DNA from: an uncultured Gammaproteobacteria bacterium
GTDB lineage: Bacteria; Patescibacteriota; Patescibacteriia; 2-12-FULL-60-25
NCBI GenBank assembly: GCA_964551765.1
Contig: CAZKEE010000001.1
Location: 33,458 to 97,457, forward strand
Direction of reading: 5' to 3'
Length of the DNA: 64,000 nucleotides
The position numbers and the translations under genes were made by a program. The notes under the pieces were generated by a model, which saw nothing but the letters and a program-made list of their open reading frames with translations, searched no databases and was not told the DNA's origin. How positions within the stretch are numbered: the stretch's first letter is position 1; each line of letters begins with the position of its first letter. This document shows positions 11,115-59,780 of the stretch, piece after piece.

Positions 11115-11672
11115 GAACGCGTTTATCAGGGATTCGTAGAAAACTCTATGAAGAAAGATAAACGGACCTATGCCGAGCGTGCCGATTATCTCAAGAAGGC
11201 GGTCGTCAAAAGGCGGAAGAAGGTACGAGAGATGGCCATCGCATACAAAGGAGGTGTCTGCAGCATATGCGGATACGACCGATGCATGGGGGCCCTTGAG
11301 TTCCATCATCCCGACCCTTCGCAAAAGGATTTCAGCATCTCGATGGACGGACTGACGCGGTCATGGGACCGGGTCAAGAAGGAGATCGAGAAATGCGTCC
11401 TCATTTGCGCGAACTGCCATCGCGAGATACATGCCGGCATGACGCAGCTTCCGACGGTAACGTCGGATTGAAAATCGAGGTGAATTGCTGGAAGCCTACA
11501 GTCATCGATCGGATGACTACGGTGATCAGCAGCCAAGCCCTGGCATGGCCAGGGAAGGTTCAGAGACTATCCCGTACGGGAGTACATCGACGAAAGTCGG
11601 TGGAAGCGCCTCGCTCCGCCTAAGGCGGATGAAGATATAGTCCACCCCGTGCGGAAACGCATGGACAATGTG
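11115..11672 (+). mobile_element. Group I intron (about 558 nt) in the tRNA anticodon loop carrying an HNH homing endonuclease ORF
   Basis: After the ORF, TTCAGAGACTA (11559-11569) and GATGAAGATATAGTCC (11628-11643) match conserved P7/J6-7 and P7-P9.0 strands of group I ribozymes. Both candidate 3' splice sites end on G (11670/11672); the preferred 5' splice is after exon position 35 (11114), the alternative after U33 (11112). Candidate IGS ACAGTC at 11498-11503 would pair with exon GACTGT. Confidence 0.75.
11148..11471 (+). CDS. HNH homing endonuclease encoded within the group I intron
   Basis: 107 aa with CSICGY...LEFHHPDPS...CANCHREIH (HNH / zinc-finger motif). Confidence 0.85.
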   Translation: MKKDKRTYAERADYLKKAVVKRRKKVREMAIAYKGGVCSICGYDRCMGALEFHHPDPSQKDFSISMDGLTRSWDRVKKEIEKCVLICANCHREIHAGMTQLPTVTSD

Positions 11673-17498: not shown

Positions 17499-19721
17499 AT
17501 GAACGACATCTCCCTCATCGAAACACGCTACGCGACATCGAAAGACAGGCTCGTGGAGGCCCGAAAAAGGCTCGGTCGGCCTTTGACCTATGCCGAAAAG
17601 GTGCTCTGTTCGCATCTGGATGCGCCAAGCGCGCAGGAATGGGCGCCGGGATCGTCCCAGCTCGCCCTGCGTCCTGACCGCGTGGCCATGCAAGACGCCA
17701 CGGCCCAGATGGCCTTGCTCCAGTTCATGCAAAGCGGCCAAGCGCGTGTCGCCGTGCCGTCCACCGTGCATTGCGATCATCTCATCCGCGCGCAAAGCGG
17801 CGCCGCGCAAGACATCGAACGCGCCAAGACCGAGAACAAAGAGGTCTATGATTTCCTCCGTTCGGCCTCGGCAAAATATGGCATCGGCTTTTGGGAACCG
17901 GGCGCGGGCATCATCCATCAGGTCGTGCTGGAACGATATGCGTTCCCGGGAGGCCTCCTCATCGGCACGGATTCGCATACGCCGAACGGCGGAGGGCTCG
18001 GCATGCTTGCCATCGGCGTGGGAGGCGCGGATGCCGGCGAAGTGATGGCGGGCCTGCCCTGGGAAGTCCTGCACCCCAAGCTCATCGGCGTGAAGCTCAT
18101 CGGGCAACTTTCCGGCTGGACCTCGCCCAAGGACGTCATCCTGTACTTGTGCGGCTTGCTCACGACCAAGGGCGGCACGAACAAGATCATCGAATATTTC
18201 GGCCCCGGCGCCGCGACCATCAGCTGCACGGGCAAGGCGACCATCGCGAACATGGGCGCGGAGCTCGGCGCCACGGGCACGGTCTTTCCCTTTGATGCGC
18301 GCATGGCGGAGTATCTGCGCGCAATGGGCCGCGCGGATGTCGCCGCGCTTGCCGAGGCGCATGCGGCCGATCTCGCCGCGGACCCGGAGGTCGCGGCACA
18401 ACCCGATCGCTATTATGACGAGGTCATCGAGATAGATCTCTCAGCGCTCATGCCGCATGTGGTGGGCCCGCATTCGCCCGATGTGGCGCATCAGGTCACC
18501 CAGCTCGCGGATTTCGTGACCGCGCAGGGGCATCCGGCCGCGCTCACGAGCGCCCTCATCGGCAGCTGTACCAATTCTTCGTATGAGGACCTGAGCCGCG
18601 CGGCCGATGTCGCCAGGCAGGGGATAGCGGCCGGGCTCAAGGCGAAGGTCCCGTTCTTCGTGACGCCCGGGTCGACCCAGGTCTATGACACGGTGAAACG
18701 CGACGGTTTGCTCGACGTGTTCGAACAGATGGGCGGCATCGTGCTCGCCAATGCCTGTGGGCCCTGCATCGGCCAATGGAAACGCAGCGATATCCCGGAT
18801 GGACAGAAAAACTCCATCATCTCTTCGTTCAATCGCAATTTCCCCGGCCGCAATGATGGCAATGCTTTGACCTGCTCCTTCCTCGCGAGCCCGGAGGTGG
18901 TCACGGCCTATGCCTTCACCGGCCGTCTTGATAGCGATCCCATCGCGGCGCTCGGTTTGAAGCCCCCTGTCGGTGATACCCTTCCGACGAACGGCTTCGT
19001 GGCAAGCGATGCGGGGTTCCAGGCACCGGGCGAGGGCACGGATGTCGAGGTGCTCATCTCGCCCACGAGCGAACGTCTCCAGGTCTTGAGGCCTTTCGAT
19101 GCCTGGGACGGCAAGGACATGACGGACCTGCCCATCTTGCTCAAGACCAAGGGCAAGACCACGACGGACCACATCTCGCCGGCGGGCAAATGGCTGGCCT
19201 ATCGCGGACATCTCGACAAGATCAGCGACAACATGTTCTCGGGCGCCATCAATGCTTTCAGCGACAAGCCTGGCACGGGTCTCGACGTACGCACGGGCGA
19301 GCGCGAGGTCCCCATCTCGCAGATCGCGCGGCGATACAAGGCCGCGGGCCTGGGGTCCCTCGTCATCGGCGATGAGAACTATGGCGAAGGCTCGAGCCGC
19401 GAACATGCCGCCATGTCCCCGCGCTACTTGGGCGTGCGCGCCGTCCTTGCGCGCTCTTTCGCGCGCATCCATGAGACCAATCTCAAGAAGCAGGGCATCT
19501 TGCCTTTGACCTTCGCGGACGCGGGCGACTATGGCCTGTTCGGCGAGACCGACAAGGTCAGCGTCATCGGACTTTCGGAGCTCGCGCCAGGACGCGCGAT
19601 CGAAGTGCTTGTCCATAAGCCCGACGGCACGACGGCCACCATCAAGACGAAACACTCGCTCACCGCGCCGCAGATCGCCTGGTTCAAAGCCGGCTCGGCG
19701 CTTAATGCCTTGAAACCTTGA
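17499..19721 (+). CDS. acn: Aconitate hydratase
   Basis: 740 aa. Fe-S ligand region [19 protein letters not shown], and C-terminal swivel domain. Confidence 0.9.
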
Positions 19722-33006: not shown

Positions 33007-33600
33007 ATGTCGAATGCCCCATTCCCCAGGCTGCAACGCCTGCTCATAGGCCTGACCGGGCTTTTGCTTGTCCCCGCGCTTGTCGTCCTGCTGTGGTCAC
33101 GGCCTATCAGGCCCTCGGCACAGCGTTCTGACGCGCCGCAGGCGCCGCCTGTCCAAGCAGATCCGGCCCATCCGCCCAAGACCGATGCGGAATGGAGGAA
33201 GGTCCTGACGCCCGAGCAATACCACATCATCCGCGAGCAGGGGACGGAACTTCCTTTTTCGAGCGCGCTCGACCACGAGACCCGCCCCGGCACCTATGTC
33301 AGCGCGGATTGCGGCATCCCGCTCTTCCGTTCCGAACAAAAATACGATTCCGGCACGGGATGGCCGAGCTTTTGGGCCCCCATCGATCCCAAGGTCGTGA
33401 CCTTGGTCGAAGATGACAGCCTGCCTTTCGAAAAACGCGTCGAGGTGGTGGATACGGCGTGCGCGGGCCACCTCGGCCATGTCTTCGATGATGGACCGCC
33501 GCCCACGGGCAAACGCTATTGCATGAACGGGCTTGCCTTGCGCTTCATCCCGGACCAGGCCGCGACCTCCACCCACAGCCCCTCCTTGCAGCGTCCCTGA
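33007..33600 (+). CDS. msrB: Peptide-methionine (R)-S-oxide reductase MsrB with N-terminal signal/TM anchor (extracytoplasmic)
   Basis: SelR signature CxxC...[13 protein letters not shown]...RYCMN after a hydrophobic leader and Pro-rich linker. Confidence 0.85.
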   Translation: MSNAPFPRLQRLLIGLTGLLLVPALVVLLWSRPIRPSAQRSDAPQAPPVQADPAHPPKTDAEWRKVLTPEQYHIIREQGTELPFSSALDHETRPGTYVSADCGIPLFRSEQKYDSGTGWPSFWAPIDPKVVTLVEDDSLPFEKRVEVVDTACAGHLGHVFDDGPPPTGKRYCMNGLALRFIPDQAATSTHSPSLQRP

Positions 33601-33649
33601 CCGCAGACTATCCTCGCTACACGATTATCCACTCACCCCTCCCTCTCCT

Positions 33650-34411
33650 ATGGACGAGAAGAAAGGTTTGTTCGACCTCTTGGATGCCAAGCAGGCCCTC
33701 ATCCTGGGCTTTGTCGCCGCCATCCTGACGATGTGCACCGTCGGTTTCATCGCGTTCGCCGCGTTGTACTTCAAAGGCGGTCTGCCGAGCTTTGGCGCGG
33801 CGCAGCAGCAGCCGAGCCCCACGGCACAGCAGCCTGACCAACAACAGCAACAGCAGCCCCCGACGCCGACCCATGCCGACGTGAGCCCCGGCCATTTCCC
33901 GGCCCTCGGCAAGGCCGACGCCAAGGTCACGGTCATCGAGTTCGCGGACTTCCGCTGTCCGTTCTGCGAACGGTATTACAATGATGTCGGCAAGAACCTG
34001 CTCAAGGACTACGTGAACACGGGCAAGGTCAAGTTCTACTTCCGCGGCTTCGCCTTCCTTGGCCCCGCCTCGACCGACGCGTCCGAAGCCTCGGAATGCG
34101 CCAATGAGCAAGGGCAGTTCTGGAAGTTCCATGACTGGCTCTATGAACATCAGGCGGACGAGAGCGATACGGCCTACTATTCCAAGGACAATCTCATCAA
34201 TTACGCGGCAAACTTGGGCTTGAACCGTGCCAAGTTCGCGGATTGCTTGAACGGCCACAAATACGCGGCCAAGGTCCAGGAAGACCTGACGGACGGCCAG
34301 AACGCCGGCGTGAGCGGCACCCCGACCACCTTCGTCAATGGAGACATCGTGGTTGGCGCCGTGCCCTATGCCCGGCTCAAGACCATGATAGACGCGGCCC
34401 TCGCCAAATAA
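33650..34411 (+). CDS. DsbA-family thiol:disulfide oxidoreductase, membrane-anchored
   Basis: TM helix, Gln-rich linker, thioredoxin fold with active-site CPFC. Confidence 0.75.
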   Translation: MDEKKGLFDLLDAKQALILGFVAAILTMCTVGFIAFAALYFKGGLPSFGAAQQQPSPTAQQPDQQQQQQPPTPTHADVSPGHFPALGKADAKVTVIEFADFRCPFCERYYNDVGKNLLKDYVNTGKVKFYFRGFAFLGPASTDASEASECANEQGQFWKFHDWLYEHQADESDTAYYSKDNLINYAANLGLNRAKFADCLNGHKYAAKVQEDLTDGQNAGVSGTPTTFVNGDIVVGAVPYARLKTMIDAALAK

Positions 34412-41088: not shown

Positions 41089-41184
41089 GACACGGTTTGT
41101 ACCATATCCACGGGGTTTTGACAGGCGGTTCCCGGTCTTTCTCCGCTCTGGCATCATGGTCCCATCATTCCTCATCCTTTTTCT

Positions 41185-41553
41185 ATGGACGAAAACCCAC
41201 AGGCCGTCGAGCTCCACGTGTGCCGCGGCATGAACTCTTGTGCCGGCAAGGGCAAAGACGGTTCCGGTGCGATGGCCGGCGGCGGTTCTTGCGCCACCGC
41301 GTCCACCCATCATTGTGCCGGCAACAATGAATGCAAAGGCCAGGGCGGTTGCGGATATGGCTCTGCCGAGGTGCAGGAACATCCGGGCGAGAATGCGTGC
41401 AAAGGCCAGGGTGGGTGCGCCGTGCCCATCACGACCAATCTGAGCACCGATGGCACGAACAAGGACAAACCGGTGTGGGACCTGGCGCGCAAGTTGTTCG
41501 AGGCCCGCATGGCGAAGCAGGGCAAGGACGTGGCCCCAGCGCCAAAGGCATAA
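41185..41553 (+). CDS. Cys-rich bufferin-like RiPP precursor candidate (8 Cys; duplicated CKGQGGC cores), no signal peptide
   Basis: 122 aa. Cx5C/Cx7C units; [15 protein letters not shown] resembles DUF2282 cores (GHSCAG / AGKNDC). In-frame stop at 41119 and no alternative start upstream. Stop is 1 nt before the MNIO start. Confidence 0.6.
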
Positions 41554-41554
41554 C

Positions 41555-42394
41555 ATGATCGCGCCACGGCTCGGCTTGCCGAACCTCGGCATCGGGGTCG
41601 GTTTGCGCATGCCGCATGTCCCGTATGTGCTCGAACATCGGCCGAAGGTCGAGTGGTTCGAGATCATCTCGGAGAACTTCATGGGCTCGCATGGACGGCC
41701 CATGAGCCAGCTCGACGAGGTCGCGGAGCGCTATCCCATCGTCTTGCATGGCGTCTCCCTCTCCATCGGGAGCACGGATGCCGTGGACCGCGGCTATCTC
41801 GCGGCGCTCAAGTCGCTCGCCACGCGCATGCGAACGCCGTGGGTCTCCGATCATCTCTGCTGGACGGGCGTGAACGGTCTCAATACGCATGATCTCTTGC
41901 CGCTCCCGTTCACTGAGGCGTCTTTGCGACATGTCATCGCGCGCGTGCGGATGGTGCAAGAGGTCCTCGAGCGGCCCCTCGTCCTCGAAAACCCCAGCAG
42001 CTATGTCGCCTTCGCGTCTTCGAGCATGGGCGAGGCCAAGTTCCTCTCGCGCCTCACCGAGGCCACGGGCTGCGGTCTGCTCCTCGACGTGAACAACGTG
42101 TATGTGACGAGCCGCAATCTTGGGCTCGACCCGCTCGCGTATCTCGACGCCTTGCCGCATGACCGCGTCGTGCAATACCACGTGGCGGGCCATACCGATG
42201 CCGGCACCCACCTCATCGATACCCACGATGCGCCGGTCTGTGATGCGGTGTGGGACCTCTATGGAAAAGCGCTCGCGCTCACCGGTCCAGTATCGACCCT
42301 TCTCGAATGGGATGCGAAGCTTCCCACCTTCCCCGAGCTTGTCGCCGAGGCCGACAAGGCGCGTCAGTATCACCGACATCCTGCCTATGCCTGA
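41555..42394 (+). CDS. DUF692 multinuclear non-heme iron oxidative enzyme (MNIO; MbnB/BufB-like)
   Basis: [56 protein letters not shown] and HVAGH family signatures. Confidence 0.8.
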
Positions 42395-42989
42395 TCTGCA
42401 TGCCGTGCAAACCTGGATGTTCGACGCGATCACCCGTCCGCGCACCATCCTGCCCGATGAGATAGGGGAGCGTCTTCGCGGGTCGCCGACCCTTCCGCCA
42501 GCACGCGGCCTGGCCATCTATCAAGATGGATATGTCTCGCGTCTCGTCGAGTGCCTGGAAAAACAATTCCGCTTCCTGCACATGACGCTCGGCGATGAGG
42601 TCTTCGCGGCCTTCGCGCGCGACTATATTGCCGCCCATCCGCCGTCAAGCCATACCCTGGCCGATCTCGGCGCGCGTTTTCCCGACCATCTGCGGGAGAC
42701 GCGTCCGCCGAAAGAGGGGACATCACCCGATTGGCGCGACTTCCTCATCGACCTCGCCCGCTATGAACTGGCCTGGTCCGAGGTCTTTGATGCGCCGCAG
42801 GCGCAGGCCCTGCGAAAGCTCGCCTGCGACTATCCGGTGCATGCCTATGTGGACGCCTTGCGCCGTGACGCGACGACCGAGATGCCGGCCGCCCGACCGA
42901 CCTTGCTCGTCCTGGACCGCCCCGACCTGACCGTGCGCGTTCGCGAGCTGGAAGAACACGTGATACCATCGCGACACATCATATTATGA
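42387..42989 (+). CDS. DUF2063 partner protein (MbnC/BufC-like), short form
   Basis: 8-nt overlap with the MNIO gene. N-terminal [15 protein letters not shown] is typical of DUF2063. 200 aa, so likely the N-terminal domain only. Confidence 0.6.
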
Positions 42990-43375
42990 CCGACACACCC
43001 ATGAAGAAAGATGAAGAGCTCTCTCCCGAGCTCTATCGCGTGGCCCGCGCAAAGGGCACGGAACCGGCCTTCACCGGCGCTTATGTGAACGAACATGCGA
43101 AGGGGATGTATCACTGCGCGGTCTGCGGGGCCGAGCTGTTCTCGTCCGACACCAAGTTCGATTCCGGCACGGGATGGCCGAGCTTCACCGAGCCCGCCAA
43201 TCTCGCCAATGTCGAGCTCCATGACGACGACAGCCTGGGCATGCGGCGCACCGAGGTGACCTGCAAAAAATGCGGCGCGCATCTGGGACATGTCTTCGAT
43301 GACGGCCCGAGCGACAAGGGCGGCAAGCGCTATTGCATCAATTCCGTGTGTCTTGCGCTGAAAAAGCAAGAATAG
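42986..43375 (+). CDS. msrB: Peptide-methionine (R)-S-oxide reductase MsrB (cytoplasmic), translationally coupled to the MNIO operon
   Basis: ATGA overlap with DUF2063 stop. HCAVCG...[16 protein letters not shown]...RYCIN SelR motifs. Confidence 0.85.
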
Positions 43376-43980: not shown

Positions 43981-44405
43981 AAAACACGCACCGAAACGGA
44001 CCCGACCCTCGTAATGAGGGTATGGTGAGTTTGCCCGATACTGCGCCCCGCGAAGGCCTGCTCCAAGAGATCTTGGCCGCGGTGGAACGTCAAGAACAGA
44101 CCCGCGCCGCCCGAAGGCGTTTTTGGGGGTTCCTGTTCCTGTGCGGCGCATCGCTTTGGGCGGTCATCTCGATGTCCATGGCCTTGGCCGCCGACCTGCG
44201 GCATTCCGGCTTTTTGGCCTTTGCCTCTTTGCTCTTCACGAACGGCGGTGACGTGCTCGCCAATTGGCGGGAGTTCTCTTATTCCTTGCTCGAGTCCTTG
44301 CCGGTCACCGAGCTCATCCTGACCTTGGGTCTCGGTCTCGCGGGCATGTATGCCTCGCGCTCGCTCCTGACCCGTCATGAACGCCTATGGACCCCCAACG
44401 CATAG
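43971..44405 (+). CDS. Putative membrane anti-sigma factor
   Basis: Overlaps the sigma gene stop. Cytoplasmic N-segment then TM helices. GTG start at 43971 or ATG at 44022. Confidence 0.45.
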   Translation: MVLKNTHRNGPDPRNEGMVSLPDTAPREGLLQEILAAVERQEQTRAARRRFWGFLFLCGASLWAVISMSMALAADLRHSGFLAFASLLFTNGGDVLANWREFSYSLLESLPVTELILTLGLGLAGMYASRSLLTRHERLWTPNA

Positions 44406-44836
44406 ATCGCCTCAAGACCGTGATGCTCACCTTGGCCGGCGTCATCGCCGTGCTTGCCGTGTTCCAGACCGGCGTCTTCGTCGGCTATCGCAAGGCGGCG
44501 TATTCCTGCCATTGGGGCGAACATCGTCGCCCGTTCTTCGAGCCGCGCATGGGGTTCATGGGTCCGCCTCCCGGTCCTCCCGGCGACGGTCCGGGGCGCG
44601 ACGCCTACATGGGCGGGCATGGCCTCGAAGGCACCGTCACCAAGATCGACGGAGATTCCCTCATCGTCACGGACCTCGACGGCGATGAGCGCACCGTCGT
44701 CATGGCGACGGGCACGGCGGTCAAACCCTCGGACAGCGACATGAGCACGGGCAGCCACGTGGTCATCCTGGGCGCGCCGGACGATGTCGGGAACATCGAG
44801 GCCCGCTTCATACGCATCACCCCATCGACACATTGA
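44387..44836 (+). CDS. DUF5666-like membrane-anchored beta-domain protein, paralogue 1
   Basis: N-terminal TM, Gly/Pro linker, GTVTKIDGDSLIVTDLDGDERTVVMATGTAV beta-rich domain. Overlaps the anti-sigma gene. Confidence 0.5.
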   Translation: MDPQRIDRLKTVMLTLAGVIAVLAVFQTGVFVGYRKAAYSCHWGEHRRPFFEPRMGFMGPPPGPPGDGPGRDAYMGGHGLEGTVTKIDGDSLIVTDLDGDERTVVMATGTAVKPSDSDMSTGSHVVILGAPDDVGNIEARFIRITPSTH

Positions 44837-44839
44837 CCT

Positions 44840-46750
44840 ATGCACCTTCCACGCATGTTCACGACCAAGCGCCTGATCGCCGTCCTCCTCTTGGGCGGCG
44901 CCGTGGCGGGCGTCCTCGTCTACAGGAACTCGACCGCCGTCACGACCAAGCCGACCTATGTGACCGCGCAGCCCTCGCGCGGCCTGCTCATCGTGTCCTT
45001 GAACGGCGCGGGCCAAGTGGCGTCGGAGAGCCGCGTCGACATCAAGCCCAAGGTCTCGGGCGACCTGCTCGCCATGAAGGTCGCGCCGGGGCAGCTCGTC
45101 AAGAAAGGCGATGTCATCGCTGAGATAGACAAGACGGCCGCGCTCAAGACCGTGCGCGATGCCGAGATCTCCCTCGCCTCGGCCAAGCTCTCCTTGTCCA
45201 AGCTCAAGCAGCCTCCCACCACGTCCAGCCTCATCGCGGCAAAGAACGCCGTGAGCGCGGCCGAACGAAATCTCCAGAACGCGCAGGCCACGGCGGCCGC
45301 GAACCTGCAGCAGGCCCAGGACCAAGTGGACGCGGCCGTGCGCAATACCCAGCTCTCTTCCGACGGCGTGACGCCGCAAGTGGTGCGGAACGTCTATGAC
45401 AACAGCGCGTCGGTCTATATCGCCGCCATGCAGACCACGGCGAACGCGGTGCATGACACGGACGGCATGGACTATAATCCGGACCTGTACTCGACCTTGG
45501 ACCCCACGCGCCGCGCCACCTTCGTGAGCGCATACCAAGCGGCCATCGCCGCGCGCGACGAGGCGATCAAACTGACCACGGCCTTGGCCATACAGAACGA
45601 GAAGATCGAGAACCTCGATGCCGCCAAGGACAAGGTCTCCTTCGCCATGGAAAAGACCATGGTGCTTTTGGGCGCGGCGGCCGATGCCTTGCAGACGACC
45701 ATCGCCTCGACCGGGCTTTCGCAGAGCGCCCTGGACCAGTTGAAGAGCGCGATACAGAGCGATCGCACCAATGTCGCGTCCAAGCAGGCGTCCATCCTGT
45801 CGCAGCAGCAGACCATCATCCAGGCCAAGAACGCCTATGCGGATTCCGGCGCCCAGTTGGCGCAGGCACAATCGACCTTGCAGCGCTTGCAGCAGGGCGG
45901 CGCGGACAAGGACGTCAAAGACGCGCAGGAGCGTTTGAACGAGGCCACGCAACAATTGAAAGACCTGCAAGCGGGACCCATGAGCATAGACGTCTCGCTC
46001 TCACAGAACACCATAGACAGCCGCGCGGCCACGCTTTCGGACGCCTTGGCCGCGCTCGCGGATTACACGGTGTATGCGCCGTTCGACGGCACCATCGCCG
46101 TGGCCGCTCCCTTGCCGGGAGACCCGATGGGCCCGAGCACCGTCGTCGCGACCATCGTGGGCAAGCAGCAGCTCGCGCAGATCACCTTGAACGAGGTGGA
46201 CGCGGCCAAGGTCAAGGTCGGTCAAAAGGCGACCGTGGCCTTCGATGCCATCCCTGACCTGACCATCAGCGGCGTGGTGCAATCCATCGATACCTTGGGC
46301 ACGGTCTCGCAGGGCGTCGTGAGCTATGCCGTCAAGATCAGCTTCGACACCCAGGACGAACGCGTGCGGCCCGGCATGAGCGTGAGCGCATCCATCATCA
46401 CGGATTCCAAAGCGGATGCGCTGACCGTGCCTTCGAGCGCGGTCAAGGCCGCGGGCGCGGGATCGTATGTCGACGTGCTCGACACGGTGCCCGCCGATGC
46501 GACCGGACCCGTCGAAGGGACCCCGCGCCGCGTCACGGTGCAGACCGGCCTCGCGAACGACAGCCAAACGGAGATCACGAACGGCCTCACGGGCACCGAG
46601 AACGTGGTCGTGCAGACCATACAACCCAAGACCGGCACGACCGCGACGACCCAGAACACCAATGCCTTACGCGCCCTCACGGGCGGCGGGGGAGGGGGTG
46701 GAGGAGGGAACTTCCGTTTCGGCGGGGGAGGCGCGGCGGGCGGACGCTGA
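44840..46750 (+). CDS. HlyD/MacA-family periplasmic adaptor (membrane fusion protein) with poly-Gly C-terminal tail
   Basis: N-terminal TM, long coiled-coil, beta-barrel/lipoyl-like C-domain. Ends in GGGGGGGGGNFRFGGGGAAGGR. Confidence 0.75.
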   Translation: MHLPRMFTTKRLIAVLLLGGAVAGVLVYRNSTAVTTKPTYVTAQPSRGLLIVSLNGAGQVASESRVDIKPKVSGDLLAMKVAPGQLVKKGDVIAEIDKTAALKTVRDAEISLASAKLSLSKLKQPPTTSSLIAAKNAVSAAERNLQNAQATAAANLQQAQDQVDAAVRNTQLSSDGVTPQVVRNVYDNSASVYIAAMQTTANAVHDTDGMDYNPDLYSTLDPTRRATFVSAYQAAIAARDEAIKLTTALAIQNEKIENLDAAKDKVSFAMEKTMVLLGAAADALQTTIASTGLSQSALDQLKSAIQSDRTNVASKQASILSQQQTIIQAKNAYADSGAQLAQAQSTLQRLQQGGADKDVKDAQERLNEATQQLKDLQAGPMSIDVSLSQNTIDSRAATLSDALAALADYTVYAPFDGTIAVAAPLPGDPMGPSTVVATIVGKQQLAQITLNEVDAAKVKVGQKATVAFDAIPDLTISGVVQSIDTLGTVSQGVVSYAVKISFDTQDERVRPGMSVSASIITDSKADALTVPSSAVKAAGAGSYVDVLDTVPADATGPVEGTPRRVTVQTGLANDSQTEITNGLTGTENVVVQTIQPKTGTTATTQNTNALRALTGGGGGGGGGNFRFGGGGAAGGR

Positions 46751-46756
46751 TCGCCT

Positions 46757-47458
46757 ATGGTGATGATAGAGGTGGACAATGTCACCAAGTCGTACACGAC
46801 GGGCGACGGCACGGAGTTCCAGGCCCTGAAGGGGATCTCGTTGAAAGTGGCCAAAGGAGATTTCGTGGCCATCATGGGGCCTTCGGGTTCCGGCAAATCC
46901 ACCCTCATGCATATCCTCGGCGCGCTCGACACGCCCACCACGGGCCGCTATTTCCTCGACGGCAAGGATGTCTCCCGGATGCGCGAGGACGAGCTCGCCG
47001 TGGTCCGCAGGGAGCGGATCGGGTACGTGTTCCAGTCCTTCAACCTCTTGCCGCGCACCACGGTACTGCGCAATGTCTCTTTGCCGCTCATGTACAAGGG
47101 CGTGCCGCGACATGAACGCATGGAGCGTGCCATCAAGGCCTTGCACGCCGCGGGCATGGAAGAGGCGAAGTTCTTCAACCTCTCGAACCAGCTCTCCGGC
47201 GGGCAGATGCAGCGCGTGGCCATTGCCCGCGCGCTCGTGAACGATCCGGCCATCATCCTGGCGGACGAACCGACCGGCAATCTCGACACCAAGACCGGCG
47301 AGTTCATCATGGGCACGTTCCAACGCCTCAATGACGAAGGCCATACCATCGTGCTCATCACGCATGAACGCGACGTGGCCGAACATGCCAAACGCATCTT
47401 CGTGCTGCGCGACGGCGTGGTGCAGCAGGAGGTACAAGGGAAATATGAACGTCACTGA
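46757..47458 (+). CDS. ABC transporter ATP-binding protein, MacB/LolD type
   Basis: GPSGSGKST Walker A, LSGGQMQRVAIARAL signature, and ILADEPTGNLD. Confidence 0.85.
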   Translation: MVMIEVDNVTKSYTTGDGTEFQALKGISLKVAKGDFVAIMGPSGSGKSTLMHILGALDTPTTGRYFLDGKDVSRMREDELAVVRRERIGYVFQSFNLLPRTTVLRNVSLPLMYKGVPRHERMERAIKALHAAGMEEAKFFNLSNQLSGGQMQRVAIARALVNDPAIILADEPTGNLDTKTGEFIMGTFQRLNDEGHTIVLITHERDVAEHAKRIFVLRDGVVQQEVQGKYERH

Positions 47459-48668
47459 TCTCGCGGAAGAGACCTATTTGGCGCTGTCCTCGAACAAGGT
47501 GCGCTCGGCCTTGACCATGCTCGGCATCGTCATCGGCATCGCGTCCGTCATCGCCATGGTGGCCATCGGCCAGGGCGCGCAGGCCGGCATACAGGCGAGC
47601 ATACAATCCGTCGGGTCCAACTTGGTCCTGGTCCTGCCGGGCGCGCAACGCGGCGTGGGCGTGCAGGTCAGCGCGGGACGCGGGTCGGCACAGACCCTGA
47701 CCCAGGGCGACGCGGACGCCATCGCGTCCTCGGTCCAGTCGCTCGCCGGCGTCGCACCCGAGCTCACGCGCCGCTATCAAGTGACGGCCAAGGGGACCAA
47801 TACCAATACCTCGGTCATCGGCACGACGCCGGACTATCCGGCGGTGCGCAATGTGCAGATCGACCAAGGGCGTTTCATCACGGACCAGGACCTGCGCTCG
47901 CTCGGCCGCGTGGCCGTGATCGGGCCCACGGCGCGCGATGACCTTTTTGGCGCGGACGCCCAGGCCATCGGCCAGATCATCAAGGTGAACAATATCGAGC
48001 TCCGCGTGGTCGGCATCACGGTGGCCAAGGGCGGCTCCGGCTTCAACAATCCGGATGATGCCATCTATATCCCGCTCGCCAGCGCGCAAAAGCTCTTGGC
48101 CGGGTCCTCCTTCGTCTCGACCATCAGCGTGGCCGCCTCGAGCCAGGACGCGATGTCCGCGGTGCAGGCCCAGGTGACGGCGCTCTTGCTCGCGCGCCAT
48201 AACATCTCGGACCCGGCCATGGCAGATTTCAACGTGCTCAACCAGGCGGACATCGTGGCCACGGCCTCGAGCGTCGCGAACACCTTCACCGTCCTGCTCG
48301 CCTCCATCGCCGGCATCTCCTTGCTCGTCGGCGGCATCGGCATCATGAACATGATGCTGACCTCGGTCACCGAGCGCACACGCGAGATCGGTCTGCGCAA
48401 GGCCATCGGCGCGCAACGCGAGGACATCACTTTGCAGTTCCTGACCGAGGCCGTGGCCCTGACCTTTTTAGGCGGGCTCATCGGGGTGATGCTCGGCCTG
48501 GGCGTCTCTTGGGGCGTGACGAAGTTCGCAGGCATCGCGAGCCAGGTCTCCCTCGGGTCCATCGCCCTGGCCTTCGGCGTCTCGGCCGGCATCGGCGTGC
48601 TGTTCGGGTATTATCCCGCCCAACGCGCGGCACGGCTCAACCCCATCGAGGCTTTGCGCTATGAATAG
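47445..48668 (+). CDS. ABC transporter permease, FtsX/MacB type
   Basis: N-terminal TM, large periplasmic domain, and three C-terminal TM helices of the FtsX fold. 14-nt overlap with the ATPase gene. Confidence 0.8.
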   Translation: MNVTDLAEETYLALSSNKVRSALTMLGIVIGIASVIAMVAIGQGAQAGIQASIQSVGSNLVLVLPGAQRGVGVQVSAGRGSAQTLTQGDADAIASSVQSLAGVAPELTRRYQVTAKGTNTNTSVIGTTPDYPAVRNVQIDQGRFITDQDLRSLGRVAVIGPTARDDLFGADAQAIGQIIKVNNIELRVVGITVAKGGSGFNNPDDAIYIPLASAQKLLAGSSFVSTISVAASSQDAMSAVQAQVTALLLARHNISDPAMADFNVLNQADIVATASSVANTFTVLLASIAGISLLVGGIGIMNMMLTSVTERTREIGLRKAIGAQREDITLQFLTEAVALTFLGGLIGVMLGLGVSWGVTKFAGIASQVSLGSIALAFGVSAGIGVLFGYYPAQRAARLNPIEALRYE

Positions 48669-52771: not shown

Positions 52772-53332
52772 TCATCTCATCAACATGGCACGGGCGAAAA
52801 GCCCGATGAGCAAGATGCCCAGGAAATTGAAGGTATAGGACAAAGGGACGAAGAGCCGGTTCGGCATGCGCGAGATGCCCAGGATGAACAGGCCGAGCTC
52901 GTCCGGCAGGGGAGAGGCGATGACCAGGGCGCCGAGCAAAGGCAGCAGCCAGCGGAAAGCGCGCATCTGGGTCAGATGACGCAGACGCTGTGACGAGACC
53001 TGGTTGAGCAAGAACTCGAAATCGCTGGACAAACGGTCCTTGAAGAAACGGAAGATGATAGCATCGCCGCACAAAGCCCCTGCGGCGCCGATGAAGGCCA
53101 CGAGGAAAGGCGAATGGTCCTGGGACAAGGCGCCGAGCACGACCACGGCCGGGGCCGTGGTGAAGAGCGAGGTGAAGAACAGGCCGGCCACGAAGGCCGA
53201 CATCACGAACAGATCGCCTATCCTGCCGTTCACGTAGTCCACGAGGTCATAGCGCGCCACGAAGACCGCGAAGGCGATGCTCAGGGAGATGAGGGCCAGG
53301 CTGCGCAAGAAATGACGGGTGCGCGGTTCCAT
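52772..53332 (-). CDS. DedA/TVP38 family membrane protein
   Basis: 186 aa with characteristic re-entrant loop region (GxxxGALxGDxI pattern). The tool ORF to 53878 is an artefact. Confidence 0.65.
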   Translation of the reverse strand: MEPRTRHFLRSLALISLSIAFAVFVARYDLVDYVNGRIGDLFVMSAFVAGLFFTSLFTTAPAVVVLGALSQDHSPFLVAFIGAAGALCGDAIIFRFFKDRLSSDFEFLLNQVSSQRLRHLTQMRAFRWLLPLLGALVIASPLPDELGLFILGISRMPNRLFVPLSYTFNFLGILLIGLFARAMLMR

Positions 53333-53353
53333 GCCGCATACTATACTAGGCCG

Positions 53354-55180
53354 ATGCACAAACCGATAGCGCCGCTTCTCGTCCTCGCCGCCATGCTCGC
53401 CGCGTTCGCGCTCCGGGCCCTGGGGCTCGTCGCGGCGGAGCAAAGCGTCCTCGCCCTTTTGCTCGCGGCCGGTATCGGCGTCTATGCCTGGAACATGCTC
53501 GCCGAGCTGTTCCGAGGACATTTCGGCGTGGACCTCATCGCGCTCACCGCCATCTTGGCCTCGGCCCTCTTGGCCCAGTGGTGGGCCGGCGCGGTCATCT
53601 TGCTCATGCTGACCGGCGGCGAGGCCTTGGAGGCCTATGCCATGCGCCGCGCCCGGCGCCAGTTGGCCGCCTTGCTTTCGAGCTTGCCGACCGTGGCGCA
53701 TCTGAAGCGCGGCGAGATCATCGAGGATGTGGACCCGGCGCGCCTCGCCGTGGGCGATGTCGTGGTGGTCAAACCCGGCGAGACCGTCCCTGCGGATGGC
53801 GTGGTGCTTTCGGGCATCTCGACCGCGGACGTGTCGCGGCTCACCGGCGAAAGCCTGCCCGTGGACGTGGGACCGCATACCCGCCTCTATGCCGGCAGCA
53901 TCAATCAGGCCGGATTGATAGAACTACGCACCTTGTCCGACGCCTCGCAAAGCCAATATGCGCGCATGCTCGAGCTCATCCGCCACGCCGAGCAGAGCAA
54001 GGCCCCTATTGTGCGCCTGGCCGATGCCTATAGCGGGACCTTCACCCTCGTGACCTTCGCGCTCGCGGGGCTGGCCTGGGCCTTTACCGGCGATCCCTTG
54101 CGCGTGCTCGCCGTCCTGGTCGTGGCCACGCCTTGCCCGCTCATCCTGGCCACGCCCATCGCCATCATCTCGGGTGTGAGCCGCGCTGCCGGCCGCGGCA
54201 TCATCGTGAAGCAAGGCGGCGCGCTCGAGACCTTGGCGCGGGTCAAGGCCATGGTCTTCGACAAGACCGGGACCCTGACCTTCGGGAACCCGACCATACG
54301 CGACGCGTTCGGACAGGGCCTGACCCCGCATGAGGTCTTGCGGCTCGCGGCCTCGCTCGATCAAGCCTCGACCCATGTCTTGGCCGGGGCCTTGGTGCGG
54401 CATGCCGCGTCCCAAGGCATGGACATCGCCTTTCCCGCCGATATGCGCGAGATCCCGGGGAAAGGCGTCACGGGAACGGTGGATGGGCAGGCCTATGCGT
54501 TCGGCCGCTTGTCCTTTTTGGCGGGCCTCGGCGTCCGCATTCCCACGGACGCGCGCGCAGTTCAGGCGGCGGACCGGGACAAGGGCATACGCACGGTCTA
54601 TTTGGCACGCGACAAAGATCTCGTCGGCGGCGTGCGGTTTTCCGATACCTTGCGCGCGGGATTGGATGTCTTCATCGCGTCCTTGTCGCGACAAGGCATC
54701 GAGCATATCGCCATGCTCACGGGGGACAAGGCAGGCGCCGCCCGCGAGGTGGCCAAGGCCATCGGCATCACCCATGTACGGGCCGAATGCCTCCCCGAGG
54801 ACAAAGTGCATGAGGTCGAGGCCATACGGCGGGACCATGCGCCCGTCGCCATGATAGGGGATGGCATCAATGATTCGCCGGCGCTCGCCGTGGCCGACGT
54901 GGGCATTGCCTTGGCCTCGGATACGGCGGGCATGGCCTCGGATGCGGCCGATATCGTGTTGACCGTGGACGACATCACCAAGGTGGGCGAAGCGCTGACC
55001 ATCGCGCAGCGCACGGTCTCGGTCGCAAAGACCGGGATCTTCGTCGGCATGGGCTTGAGCTTCGGTCTCATGGGGCTCGCGGCCATCGGCATCATCACGC
55101 CGCTCTATGGCGCCGTCTTGCAAGAGGTCGTGGACGTCCTCGTCATCGTGAACGCCTTGCGCGCGCATCGCGAGGCCTAA
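53354..55180 (+). CDS. Heavy-metal translocating P1B-type ATPase lacking an N-terminal HMA domain
   Basis: CPC in TM6 (VVATPCPLILATP), DKTGTLT phosphorylation site, GDGINDSPAL hinge. Confidence 0.85.
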   Translation: MHKPIAPLLVLAAMLAAFALRALGLVAAEQSVLALLLAAGIGVYAWNMLAELFRGHFGVDLIALTAILASALLAQWWAGAVILLMLTGGEALEAYAMRRARRQLAALLSSLPTVAHLKRGEIIEDVDPARLAVGDVVVVKPGETVPADGVVLSGISTADVSRLTGESLPVDVGPHTRLYAGSINQAGLIELRTLSDASQSQYARMLELIRHAEQSKAPIVRLADAYSGTFTLVTFALAGLAWAFTGDPLRVLAVLVVATPCPLILATPIAIISGVSRAAGRGIIVKQGGALETLARVKAMVFDKTGTLTFGNPTIRDAFGQGLTPHEVLRLAASLDQASTHVLAGALVRHAASQGMDIAFPADMREIPGKGVTGTVDGQAYAFGRLSFLAGLGVRIPTDARAVQAADRDKGIRTVYLARDKDLVGGVRFSDTLRAGLDVFIASLSRQGIEHIAMLTGDKAGAAREVAKAIGITHVRAECLPEDKVHEVEAIRRDHAPVAMIGDGINDSPALAVADVGIALASDTAGMASDAADIVLTVDDITKVGEALTIAQRTVSVAKTGIFVGMGLSFGLMGLAAIGIITPLYGAVLQEVVDVLVIVNALRAHREA

Positions 55181-59237: not shown

Positions 59238-59780
59238 CTATTTCCCTTCGCCCTTGCAGGAACCACCCTTGCCCATGCATTTCCCGCCCATGCACATGGC
59301 CCCGCCCTTACAATACTTGTGATCGAGCGAAAGCTTGCCGGGTCCGCCGAGCAAGAGCGCGATGGCGGTCGCGAGCAACATGAGGTCGGCATCGCCCTTG
59401 GGCAAGCTGAAACCCTTGGCCATGCCCCAGGCCACCAGCATATTGATGGTGATGAGGGCCGCGGCCTGACGCGTGCACAGGCCCAGGATGAGGGCCAAGC
59501 CGCCCAAGAACTCGGTCAAAGCCGAGAGATAGGCGAACAAGGTGGGCAAGGGGAAGCCGAGATTGGCCACCATGCCGGTGAACATGTCCATGCCGCCGAA
59601 CAATTTCCCATACCCATGCAGGACCAGGATGATACCGGCGGCCAAGCGCAGGATGAGCTTGGCTTTTGCGCCCTTCCAATGCTTGTGCATGTGGCCCGCG
59701 CCATGGCAGTCGCACCCGGAGGAGTTGCACGTGCCATCCGCGCATTTCCCGCAATGATCGTTCTTACAGCAGTCCATCAT
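59238..59780 (-). CDS. DoxX-family membrane protein with Cys-rich N- and C-terminal tails
   Basis: DoxX core (LRLAAGIILVLHGYGKLFGG...). Tails CCKNDHCGKCADGTCNSSGCDCHG and CKGGAMCMGGKCMGKGGSCKGEGK. Confidence 0.7.
   Translation of the reverse strand: MMDCCKNDHCGKCADGTCNSSGCDCHGAGHMHKHWKGAKAKLILRLAAGIILVLHGYGKLFGGMDMFTGMVANLGFPLPTLFAYLSALTEFLGGLALILGLCTRQAAALITINMLVAWGMAKGFSLPKGDADLMLLATAIALLLGGPGKLSLDHKYCKGGAMCMGGKCMGKGGSCKGEGK

Follow-up and report, generated by a model that had tools for sequence, protein, structure and literature searches.

A predicted bufferin-type MNIO operon with a signal-less precursor and a translationally coupled msrB gene in a Patescibacteria genome

The 64,000-nt stretch of contig CAZKEE010000001.1 analyzed here (the window) encodes four consecutive genes that are supported as a bufferin/captophorin-type MNIO operon: a small Cys-rich precursor, an MNIO (DUF692) enzyme, a DUF2063 partner protein and a peptide-methionine (R)-S-oxide reductase, MsrB (Table 1). 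Sequence comparison points to this class because the enzyme and its partner pass the BufB and DUF2063 cut-offs, the first three genes follow the canonical A-B-C order and the precursor carries N-x-C-K-G motifs. The bufferin/captophorin core is already known, as is the coupling of bufferins, extracytoplasmic function (ECF) sigma factors and Msr enzymes at the regulon level in Neisseria and Haemophilus. What distinguishes the operon is a precursor without signal peptide whose family is undescribed or barely described, a short partner, the operon-level linkage to MsrB and an ECF sigma factor, and a host belonging to the Patescibacteria. The gene structure is established. The ATG of the MNIO gene lies 1 nt past the TAA of the precursor gene, the MNIO and DUF2063 genes overlap by 8 nt, and the DUF2063 gene is joined to msrB by an ATGA overlap. 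An earlier reading of the DNA without database searches (the sequence-only reading) had described these four same-strand genes and their junctions, the precursor of 122 aa with 8 Cys, MNIO family signatures, a short DUF2063 partner and a cytoplasmic MsrB as fourth gene. Open reading frames, translations and family matches bear out all of these points, and every MNIO motif quoted there is present. Its interpretation as a bufferin system also stands, but two features of the precursor that it regarded as unusual, the C-terminal tail and the missing signal peptide, proved to be shared with relatives, as described below. The G+C content of the cluster (0.61-0.63) equals that of the window (mean 0.62) and gives no signal of horizontal transfer.

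The family assignments of the two maturation proteins are likewise established. In Pfam and NCBIfam profile searches the enzyme matched PF05114 over its full length (1.3e-108) and reached 362.4 bits against NF050167 MNIO_BufB (cut-off 310, profile positions 1-262 of 262), but remained below the cut-offs of HvfB (251.8 versus 360 bits) and MbnB (TIGR04159, 53.8 versus 325 bits) and far below those of ApyH and ChrH. Its closest relatives carry the NCBI name 'MNIO family bufferin maturase'; the homologue search returned none above 69% identity. Among PDB sequences the closest solved structure is the H. somnus DUF692 protein 3bww (2.5e-47), followed by TglH and MbnB. The partner matches PF09836 with residues 7-102 (73.8 bits, cut-off 27.2). 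Thus, both the DUF692 identity of the frame starting at 41555 and the DUF2063 identity of its partner were confirmed. No match to RRE-type models, including PF22106 NGO1945_C, was found for the C-terminal half of the partner, no PDB sequence matched the protein even at E<=1, and the HvfC model gave 39.9 bits (cut-off 142). In relatives the partner varies from 190 to 298 aa. A methanobactin system was rejected on the low MbnB score and because the partner is a DUF2063 protein instead of MbnC. An HvfABC/oxazolin system was rejected as well, since HvfB and HvfC fall short of their cut-offs and no EGKCG repeats were found in the precursor.

The precursor gene has a fixed start. An in-frame TGA at 41119-41121 lies 66 nt upstream, and no ATG, GTG or TTG occurs between it and position 41185; therefore, a longer N-terminus is impossible. 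The N-terminus is hydrophilic; as judged from the sequence, a Sec, Tat or lipoprotein signal is lacking and a cleavable leader is not evident either, which agrees with the earlier description of a signal-less precursor lacking an alternative start. Its Cys residues occupy positions 13, 19, 36, 44, 50, 56, 72 and 78. ENACKG and NNECKG are N-x-C-K-G motifs of the type found in the BufA2-like 'Cys-Lys' group, a likeness at the motif level only; NACKG is a common 5-mer in the 'Cys-Lys' captophorins (PMC13097082). Two motifs recur in the core, HxCxGxNxC (residues 11 and 42) and GxNxCxGxGxC (residues 46 and 68), and in this form the 'duplicated core' of the sequence-only reading is real. No Pfam match was obtained at E<=0.1, including DUF2282, and NF050166 BufA2 reached only 19.9 bits over residues 38-79 (cut-off 60). 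The DUF2282 and BUF_6/12Cys models against which the precursor was to be compared do not recognize it.

In alignments of 25 and 90 members, H11, C13, G15, N17, C44, C50, C56, N70, C78, P81, W98, R102 are conserved in all sequences, and C19, C36, H42, C72, A101, F105, E106 and P120 in at least 90%. The Cys-free C-terminal segment of 45 aa had been taken for a peculiarity of the window gene. However, W98, R102, F105, E106 and P120 are invariant or nearly so across 90 homologues, and the segment is conserved in every branch of the family. It is therefore a conserved module and not peculiar to this precursor. An AlphaFold2 model based on the 90-sequence alignment has a mean pLDDT (the model's per-residue confidence score) of 66.5. 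Its only confident part is a helix at residues 97-111 (pLDDT about 88), while the Cys-rich part is modelled as coil. A Foldseek search of this model against the PDB returned nothing below E=2.5.

The precursor family is large. Among 5.8 billion protein clusters searched, 844 were homologous to the precursor at E<=0.01, and the identical gene is present on two independent assemblies, which shows that the precursor gene is real. When one genome per GTDB species was scanned, at least 499 precursor loci were detected. The best 80, from which gene neighbourhoods were taken, span Acidobacteriota, Bacteroidota, Actinomycetota, some Pseudomonadota, Planctomycetota and Verrucomicrobiota. All 78 of these 80 loci that reach far enough encode precursor, MNIO and DUF2063 protein in this order on the same strand. 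Conservation in related genomes and synteny with other bufferin-like operons, two points that the sequence-only reading had proposed for comparison, are thus established. Four partners from other branches pass the PF09836 cut-off together with the window partner (57-74 bits). The precursors of the related loci contain 8-25 Cys in about 122-324 aa, lengths being estimated from the first ATG. Two tandem precursor genes occur at L082, L092 and L102. At L088, L090, L094, L103 and L104 a precursor homologue stands without a detected MNIO gene in the DNA at hand.

Three groups can be distinguished within the family. The largest, the 'ELHVCMG' (or 'HVCMG') branch from Bacteroidota, Acidobacteriota, Actinomycetota and some Pseudomonadota, consists of signal-less precursors with 8-25 Cys. 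The absence of a signal peptide, listed earlier as an oddity, is therefore the rule in this branch, and signal-less MNIO precursors have already been catalogued (PMC12452194). A gene for a PF12902 ferritin-like protein (390-520 aa, 120-134 bits) accompanies the core in 66 'ELHVCMG' loci on the same strand, directly upstream in 43 and downstream in 24, with one locus harboring both (e.g. L022:5464-6834 and L056:8967-10304). None of the papers searched names MNIO enzymes along with ferritin-like proteins, and as judged from the gene linkage the protein may be an additional, undescribed maturation enzyme. A tblastn search did not find it anywhere in the window, so it was ruled out as part of the window system. 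The 'HVCRG' branch from Planctomycetota and Verrucomicrobiota lacks the ferritin-like gene and has Tat-like N-termini of the form RRDFxxL..AALGG, which score below the threshold of the TAT model. Such twin-arginine precursors, which are not of the Sec type, were seen at L044, L048, L080 and L082 and in the proteins P0044, P0087 and P0099. Tat export after modification and folding in the cytoplasm would suit a small MNIO-modified protein. The third group combines an HVCRG-type core with the absence of a signal. It comprises the window precursor and its ten closest homologues, which are 55-71% identical, 121-130 aa long, have short hydrophilic N-termini and stem from contigs of 33-62% G+C. Six Cys (13, 36, 44, 50, 56 and 78) are invariant within this clade. 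At alignment position 30, where the other branches have Cys, its members have Met, Lys or Thr. No close-clade member was found among the best loci of the GTDB species genomes, where the top identity is 56%. A scan of metagenome contigs with the close-clade alignment returned only relatives of at most 50% identity and one partial match of 46 residues at 52%. In a relative of lower G+C content (46%), a LAGLIDADG homing-endonuclease gene adjoins the cluster (L086:33-827, reverse strand).

The fourth gene of the operon encodes a typical MsrB (SelR, 5.4e-51; TIGR00357, 170.3 bits, cut-off 113). Its translation contains the Zn-site pairs CAVC and CKKC and the catalytic Cys of RYCIN, and lacks both a hydrophobic N-terminus and a signal sequence. 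The window encodes a second MsrB, which shares 49% identity with that of the operon and is anchored in the membrane by its N-terminus; on this comparison, the MsrB of the operon is of the cytoplasmic type. For the same reason the idea that it is a dedicated extra copy was rejected, as it may be the only cytoplasmic one. Among 106 related loci, msrB adjoins the cluster in three, namely the window's own contig, L083 and L084. The latter two represent one relative, whose precursor is 71% and whose MsrB, in the same position, is 78% identical to that of the window. Eight genes are arranged alike in the window and in L083 and encode precursor, MNIO, partner, MsrB, an ECF sigma factor, a small membrane protein, a 149-aa membrane protein and a HlyD-like adaptor, with amino-acid identities of 38-78%. 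The sigma gene starts 38 nt 3' of msrB, and a sequence scan found no terminator-like site between them. It is probably located on the same transcript, and the unit may therefore be autoregulated; the sequence-only reading had overlooked this continuation of the operon. No Pfam match was found for the small membrane protein that follows, which is a candidate anti-sigma factor by its position only. Membership of the subsequent genes (44387..48668) in the system is uncertain.

Upstream of the precursor gene, two short blocks, TTTTGACA and GGCATCAT, are common to the window and L083 with an identical 26-nt gap, although the proteins of the two lineages are only 38-78% identical. A promoter scan of this region found no sigma-70-like promoter, and the spacing of the blocks is incompatible with one; the two sequences did not define an ECF-type motif either. 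They are possibly a promoter or an operator.

In characterized bufferins, an MNIO enzyme and a DUF2063 protein, both of which are needed, turn conserved Cys into 5-thiooxazoles, and the products bind Cu (PMC11626156, PMC13097082). Bufferins carry Sec signals and protect against periplasmic copper stress, and the SigF copper regulon includes the operons buf1 and buf2 (PMC11626156). The class was named captophorins by Mitchell and co-workers. Bufferin 2 of Caulobacter vibrioides (BufA2B2C2, BUF_6/12Cys) resembles the window system in its A-B-C order, where a DUF2063 partner comes after a BufB-type MNIO, in the lack of DoxX in the operon, in its association with an ECF sigma factor and in its small Cys-rich substrate with C-K-G motifs; six Cys are invariant in the window clade. 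In contrast to it, the window precursor lacks a Sec signal, is twice as long, has a conserved C-terminal helix and falls well short of the BufA2 cut-off. In addition, the window partner is about 55 residues shorter, msrB is part of the operon and the host is not a member of the Pseudomonadota. A second relevant group are the 'Adjamnio-I' precursors of Antoine et al. 2025, which are signal-less, contain 8-21 Cys in 122-293 aa and are encoded just before the MNIO gene (PMC12452194, Table 2). The window precursor shares these properties, and its 122 aa and 8 Cys equal the lower bounds. However, the partners reported for Adjamnio-I are PME-type 2, without a DUF2063 signature, whereas the window partner and the related partners tested pass PF09836, a difference to which different Pfam releases may contribute. 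On the published lengths and Cys counts, which fit, the precursor family is likely to be Adjamnio-I, whereas the partner type does not fit under current Pfam. Motifs of the window family were not found in the supplementary text of that study, and Patescibacteria are not mentioned in the paper (PMC12452194). Antoine et al. also proposed that full-length DUF2063-RRE partners accompany Sec-signal precursors, whose signal peptide would aid recognition (PMC12452194). In the window operon, a signal-less precursor is paired with a partner that is DUF2063-positive but short.

A link between bufferin-type operons, ECF sigma factors and methionine sulfoxide reductases has experimental precedents. In Neisseria, the main targets of sigmaE are msrAB and the operon NMB2140-2145, which comprises genes for DoxX and an anti-sigma factor, rpoE and three genes without annotation at the time (PMC2893595). 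The identically organized gonococcal operon includes NGO1945, a DUF2063 protein (PMC2954202) that is now placed in a bona fide RiPP (peptide made by the ribosome and modified after translation) cluster (PMC13097082). Both msrAB and homologues of the Neisseria DoxX cluster are under RpoE2 control in H. influenzae (PMC7907618). The sequence-only reading had listed the methionine sulfoxide reductase of the operon among its differences from described bufferins. The translational coupling is genuine but restricted to two lineages, and the connection of Msr and bufferins via an ECF sigma factor was already known at the regulon level (PMC2893595, PMC7907618). The precursor of the Neisseria system (NMB2140-2145/NGO1948-1943, the gonophorin cluster) is of another, exported type (PMC13097082), whereas that of the window is signal-less. 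In both systems, one transcription unit comprises the MNIO and DUF2063 genes, an ECF sigma gene and, downstream, a candidate anti-sigma gene, and a methionine sulfoxide reductase is included in the regulatory unit. They differ in that the Neisseria msrAB is distant and its product surface-exposed, whereas the window has MsrB alone, cytoplasmic and translationally coupled, and in that DoxX and a ZAS anti-sigma factor are present in Neisseria but absent from the window operon. A third case concerns YedY, the periplasmic methionine sulfoxide reductase MsrP. Caulobacter SigF controls a YedY-like Oxidored_molyb protein in addition to both buf operons (PMC3511200), and Oxidored_molyb genes were noted in some EGKCG clusters by Antoine et al. 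(PMC12452194).

For the chemistry, the metal, the location of the product and the role of MsrB we infer the following scheme, which we favor with moderate confidence: the precursor would receive thiooxazoles on some conserved Cys and act as a cytoplasmic chelator of Cu or another soft metal, forming a stress module with a co-expressed cytoplasmic MsrB under the control of an ECF sigma factor. The BufB-type enzyme and its DUF2063 partner would use O2 and a multi-iron center to convert some of the conserved Cys of the 122-aa substrate into 5-thiooxazoles, and the modified protein, together with the invariant His and a nearby Met, would chelate the metal. Unlike bufferins, which are exported to the periplasm, the product would most likely be retained in the cytoplasm as a modified small metalloprotein; this location is suggested by the lack of any Sec, Tat or lipoprotein signal and of an evident cleavable leader. 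The amphipathic C-terminal helix could serve as a handle for the partner protein, a role that in Sec-type bufferins is partly credited to the signal peptide. The stress module, completed by MsrB and the ECF sigma factor, would combine in one transcription unit what Neisseria and Haemophilus run as an ECF regulon. MsrB would repair Met-(R)-sulfoxide arising from copper or oxidant stress in the same compartment, with the Met-containing precursor as a possible client. As a proposed small Cys-rich copper buffer of the cytoplasm, the product would be comparable to cytosolic Csp3 copper storage proteins and metallothioneins; however, it shows no sequence or fold relationship to them, and they bind metal via unmodified thiolates without maturation enzymes.

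Several observations weigh against this scheme. The precursor fails every curated precursor model, in Pfam as well as that of BufA2. The partner is 50-60 residues below the typical DUF2063-RRE length of 250-260 aa, and its C-terminal region is unmatched by RRE-type models. The MsrB linkage is confined to two lineages: msrB was not found at three other members of the same clade or at the remaining loci (103 of 106 lack it), and the metagenome contig scan revealed no new MsrB-linked loci. As no further close relatives were found, its frequency rests on these two lineages, and the linkage is therefore possibly an accident of gene order involving a housekeeping cytoplasmic MsrB. Msr genes are not always tied to bufferins either, since the msrA homologues of Caulobacter are not SigF-dependent (PMC3511200); the link is thus not universal. 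Finally, a MacB-type ATP-binding cassette (ABC) system with a HlyD-like adaptor is encoded just downstream and is syntenic in L083 up to the HlyD-like gene, so that a dedicated export route may exist.

A more general form of the cytoplasmic scheme can be put forward only tentatively. According to it, signal-less members of the family are cytoplasmic bufferins in which the C-terminal helix replaces the signal peptide, and Msr enzymes are matched to the compartment, keeping the Met/His/thiooxazole site or copper-damaged neighbors reduced. Periplasmic or surface-exposed MsrP and MsrAB would then accompany exported bufferins, and the cytoplasmic MsrB the product of the window. In the few cases available, the Msr partner does appear to sit in the compartment predicted for its bufferin.

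Alternatively, MsrB could be a bystander, a housekeeping gene packed alongside an ordinary bufferin-like three-gene module in a compact genome. Patescibacteria genomes are gene-dense and overlapping start and stop codons are common in them, and msrB is missing from 103 of the 106 loci, three of which belong to the same signal-less clade. We consider this explanation unlikely in view of the order core, msrB and ECF sigma gene, which persists in a relative despite protein identities of only 38-78%, and of the experimental precedent for ECF sigma factors co-regulating Msr and bufferin-type operons (PMC2893595, PMC7907618).

It is improbable, too, that the product leaves the cell by the adjacent HlyD-like/MacB-type ABC system or another non-classical route and acts at the surface of a cell without periplasm as the equivalent of periplasmic bufferins. 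The same strand carries, at a distance of 1.5-5 kb, the genes of the HlyD-like adaptor, the ABC ATPase and the MacB-type permease, and the synteny with L083 reaches the HlyD-like gene. Moreover, Planctomycetota and Verrucomicrobiota precursors bear Tat-like signals (RRDFxxL...AALGG), so that the ancestral role of the family may be extracytoplasmic. However, MacB-type systems generally act on substrates at the membrane or its outer face and do not expel folded cytoplasmic proteins. The ECF sigma gene, the membrane protein and another gene intervene between core and transporter, and no such transporter is present at L085, L086 and L087 within the short DNA at hand. In addition, the window does encode a membrane-anchored MsrB, but at another site, and the co-transcribed Msr is of cytoplasmic type.

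A different MNIO modification or another role, such as a redox buffer or the binding of a metal other than copper, is poorly compatible with an enzyme that scores as a BufB equivalog and far below the ApyH, MbnB and ChrH cut-offs, whose closest relatives are named bufferin maturases by NCBI, and with the absence of the ferritin-like gene from the window; it would nevertheless accord with the variety of MNIO reactions, with an uncharacterized precursor family outside all curated families, with the PF12902 partner of 66 related loci, which suggests added chemistry in the main branch, and with earlier revisions of MNIO product structures, for instance from oxazolone-thioamide to thiooxazole (PMC13097082).

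To our knowledge, studies of bufferins/captophorins, a recently recognized and very widespread copper defense, have to date been limited to periplasmic peptides of Pseudomonadota that are exported by Sec. The locus points to a large precursor family outside the curated models, with signal-less, Tat-type and ferritin-linked branches, and to a version probably working in the cytoplasm of Patescibacteria, which have reduced genomes and no periplasm. It also indicates an operon-level tie to methionine-sulfoxide repair, until now visible only as co-regulation in pathogens. If a cytoplasmic bufferin operates in a minimal-genome cell without periplasm, thiooxazole metallophores are not solely an envelope defense. 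A compact construct of the four genes bears on two questions: how MNIO and partner recognize a substrate without a signal peptide, and whether Msr enzymes service metallophores.

Table 1. Features of the operon, its surroundings and the remainder of the window.
Feature	Coordinates	Strand	Evidence and remarks
Precursor gene	41185..41553	+	122 aa, 8 Cys, stop TAA 41551-41553; open reading frame, homologues, alignments
MNIO (DUF692) enzyme, BufB type, 279 aa	41555..42394	+	PF05114, NF050167
DUF2063 partner, 200 aa, PME-type 1 by Pfam criterion	42387..42989	+	PF09836
MsrB (peptide-methionine (R)-S-oxide reductase), 129 aa	42986..43375	+	SelR, TIGR00357
ECF-type sigma-70 factor, 188 aa	43414..43980	+	Sigma70_r2/r4 in called gene of L001; 61% identical orthologue in same position in L083
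Small membrane protein, candidate anti-sigma by position only	44025..44405	+	Called gene in L001, hydrophobic segments; 39% identical orthologue in L083
149-aa membrane-anchored protein, HlyD/YknX-like adaptor, ABC ATPase, MacB-type permease	44387..48668	+	HlyD_3, ABC_tran, MacB_PCD, FtsX
Two conserved upstream blocks, possible promoter or operator	41116-41123 (TTTTGACA), 41150-41157 (GGCATCAT)	+	Upstream comparison with L083
Second MsrB, N-terminal membrane anchor, 49% identical to operon copy	33007-33600	+	Translation
Membrane-anchored DsbA-like thioredoxin-fold protein, CPFC motif	33533-34411	+	Directly after second MsrB
DoxX-family membrane protein	59238-59780	-	PF07681, 74 bits; Cys/His-rich tails at both ends, MMDCCKNDHCGKCADGTCNSSGCDCHGAGH... 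and ...KYCKGGAMCMGGKCMGKGGSCKGEGK
Heavy-metal translocating P1B-type ATPase	53114-55180	+	TIGR01525, 506 bits; about 10 kb downstream of cluster
Aconitate hydratase	17499-19721	+	Best match 'mitochondrial-type' TIGR01340, 1000 bits, cut-off 825
Group I catalytic intron	11377-11664	+	Rfam RF00028, 70.2 bits, gathering score 50, full model length

As judged from protein matches, the host is an Uhrbacteria-like member of the Patescibacteria, a placement that the sequence-only reading did not make. The RpoD encoded in the window is 91% identical to a protein of Candidatus Uhrbacteria, and the remaining named top matches are labelled 'Patescibacteria group bacterium'. The window is chromosomal, since it also encodes UvrB, DnaG, aconitase and the heavy-metal P1B ATPase. 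About 8 kb upstream of the cluster, the second MsrB and the DsbA-like protein constitute an extracytoplasmic pair for Met repair. The sole DoxX gene of the window is located about 16 kb downstream of the operon and carries the Cys/His-rich tails that had been described for it. It is not linked to any MNIO gene; its C-K-G motifs resemble those of the precursor. The presence of a P1B-type ATPase nearby would fit metal-stress functions of this region. No tRNA gene that might host the group I intron was detected in the window. The aconitase is notable, as Patescibacteria are usually described as lacking the tricarboxylic acid cycle.

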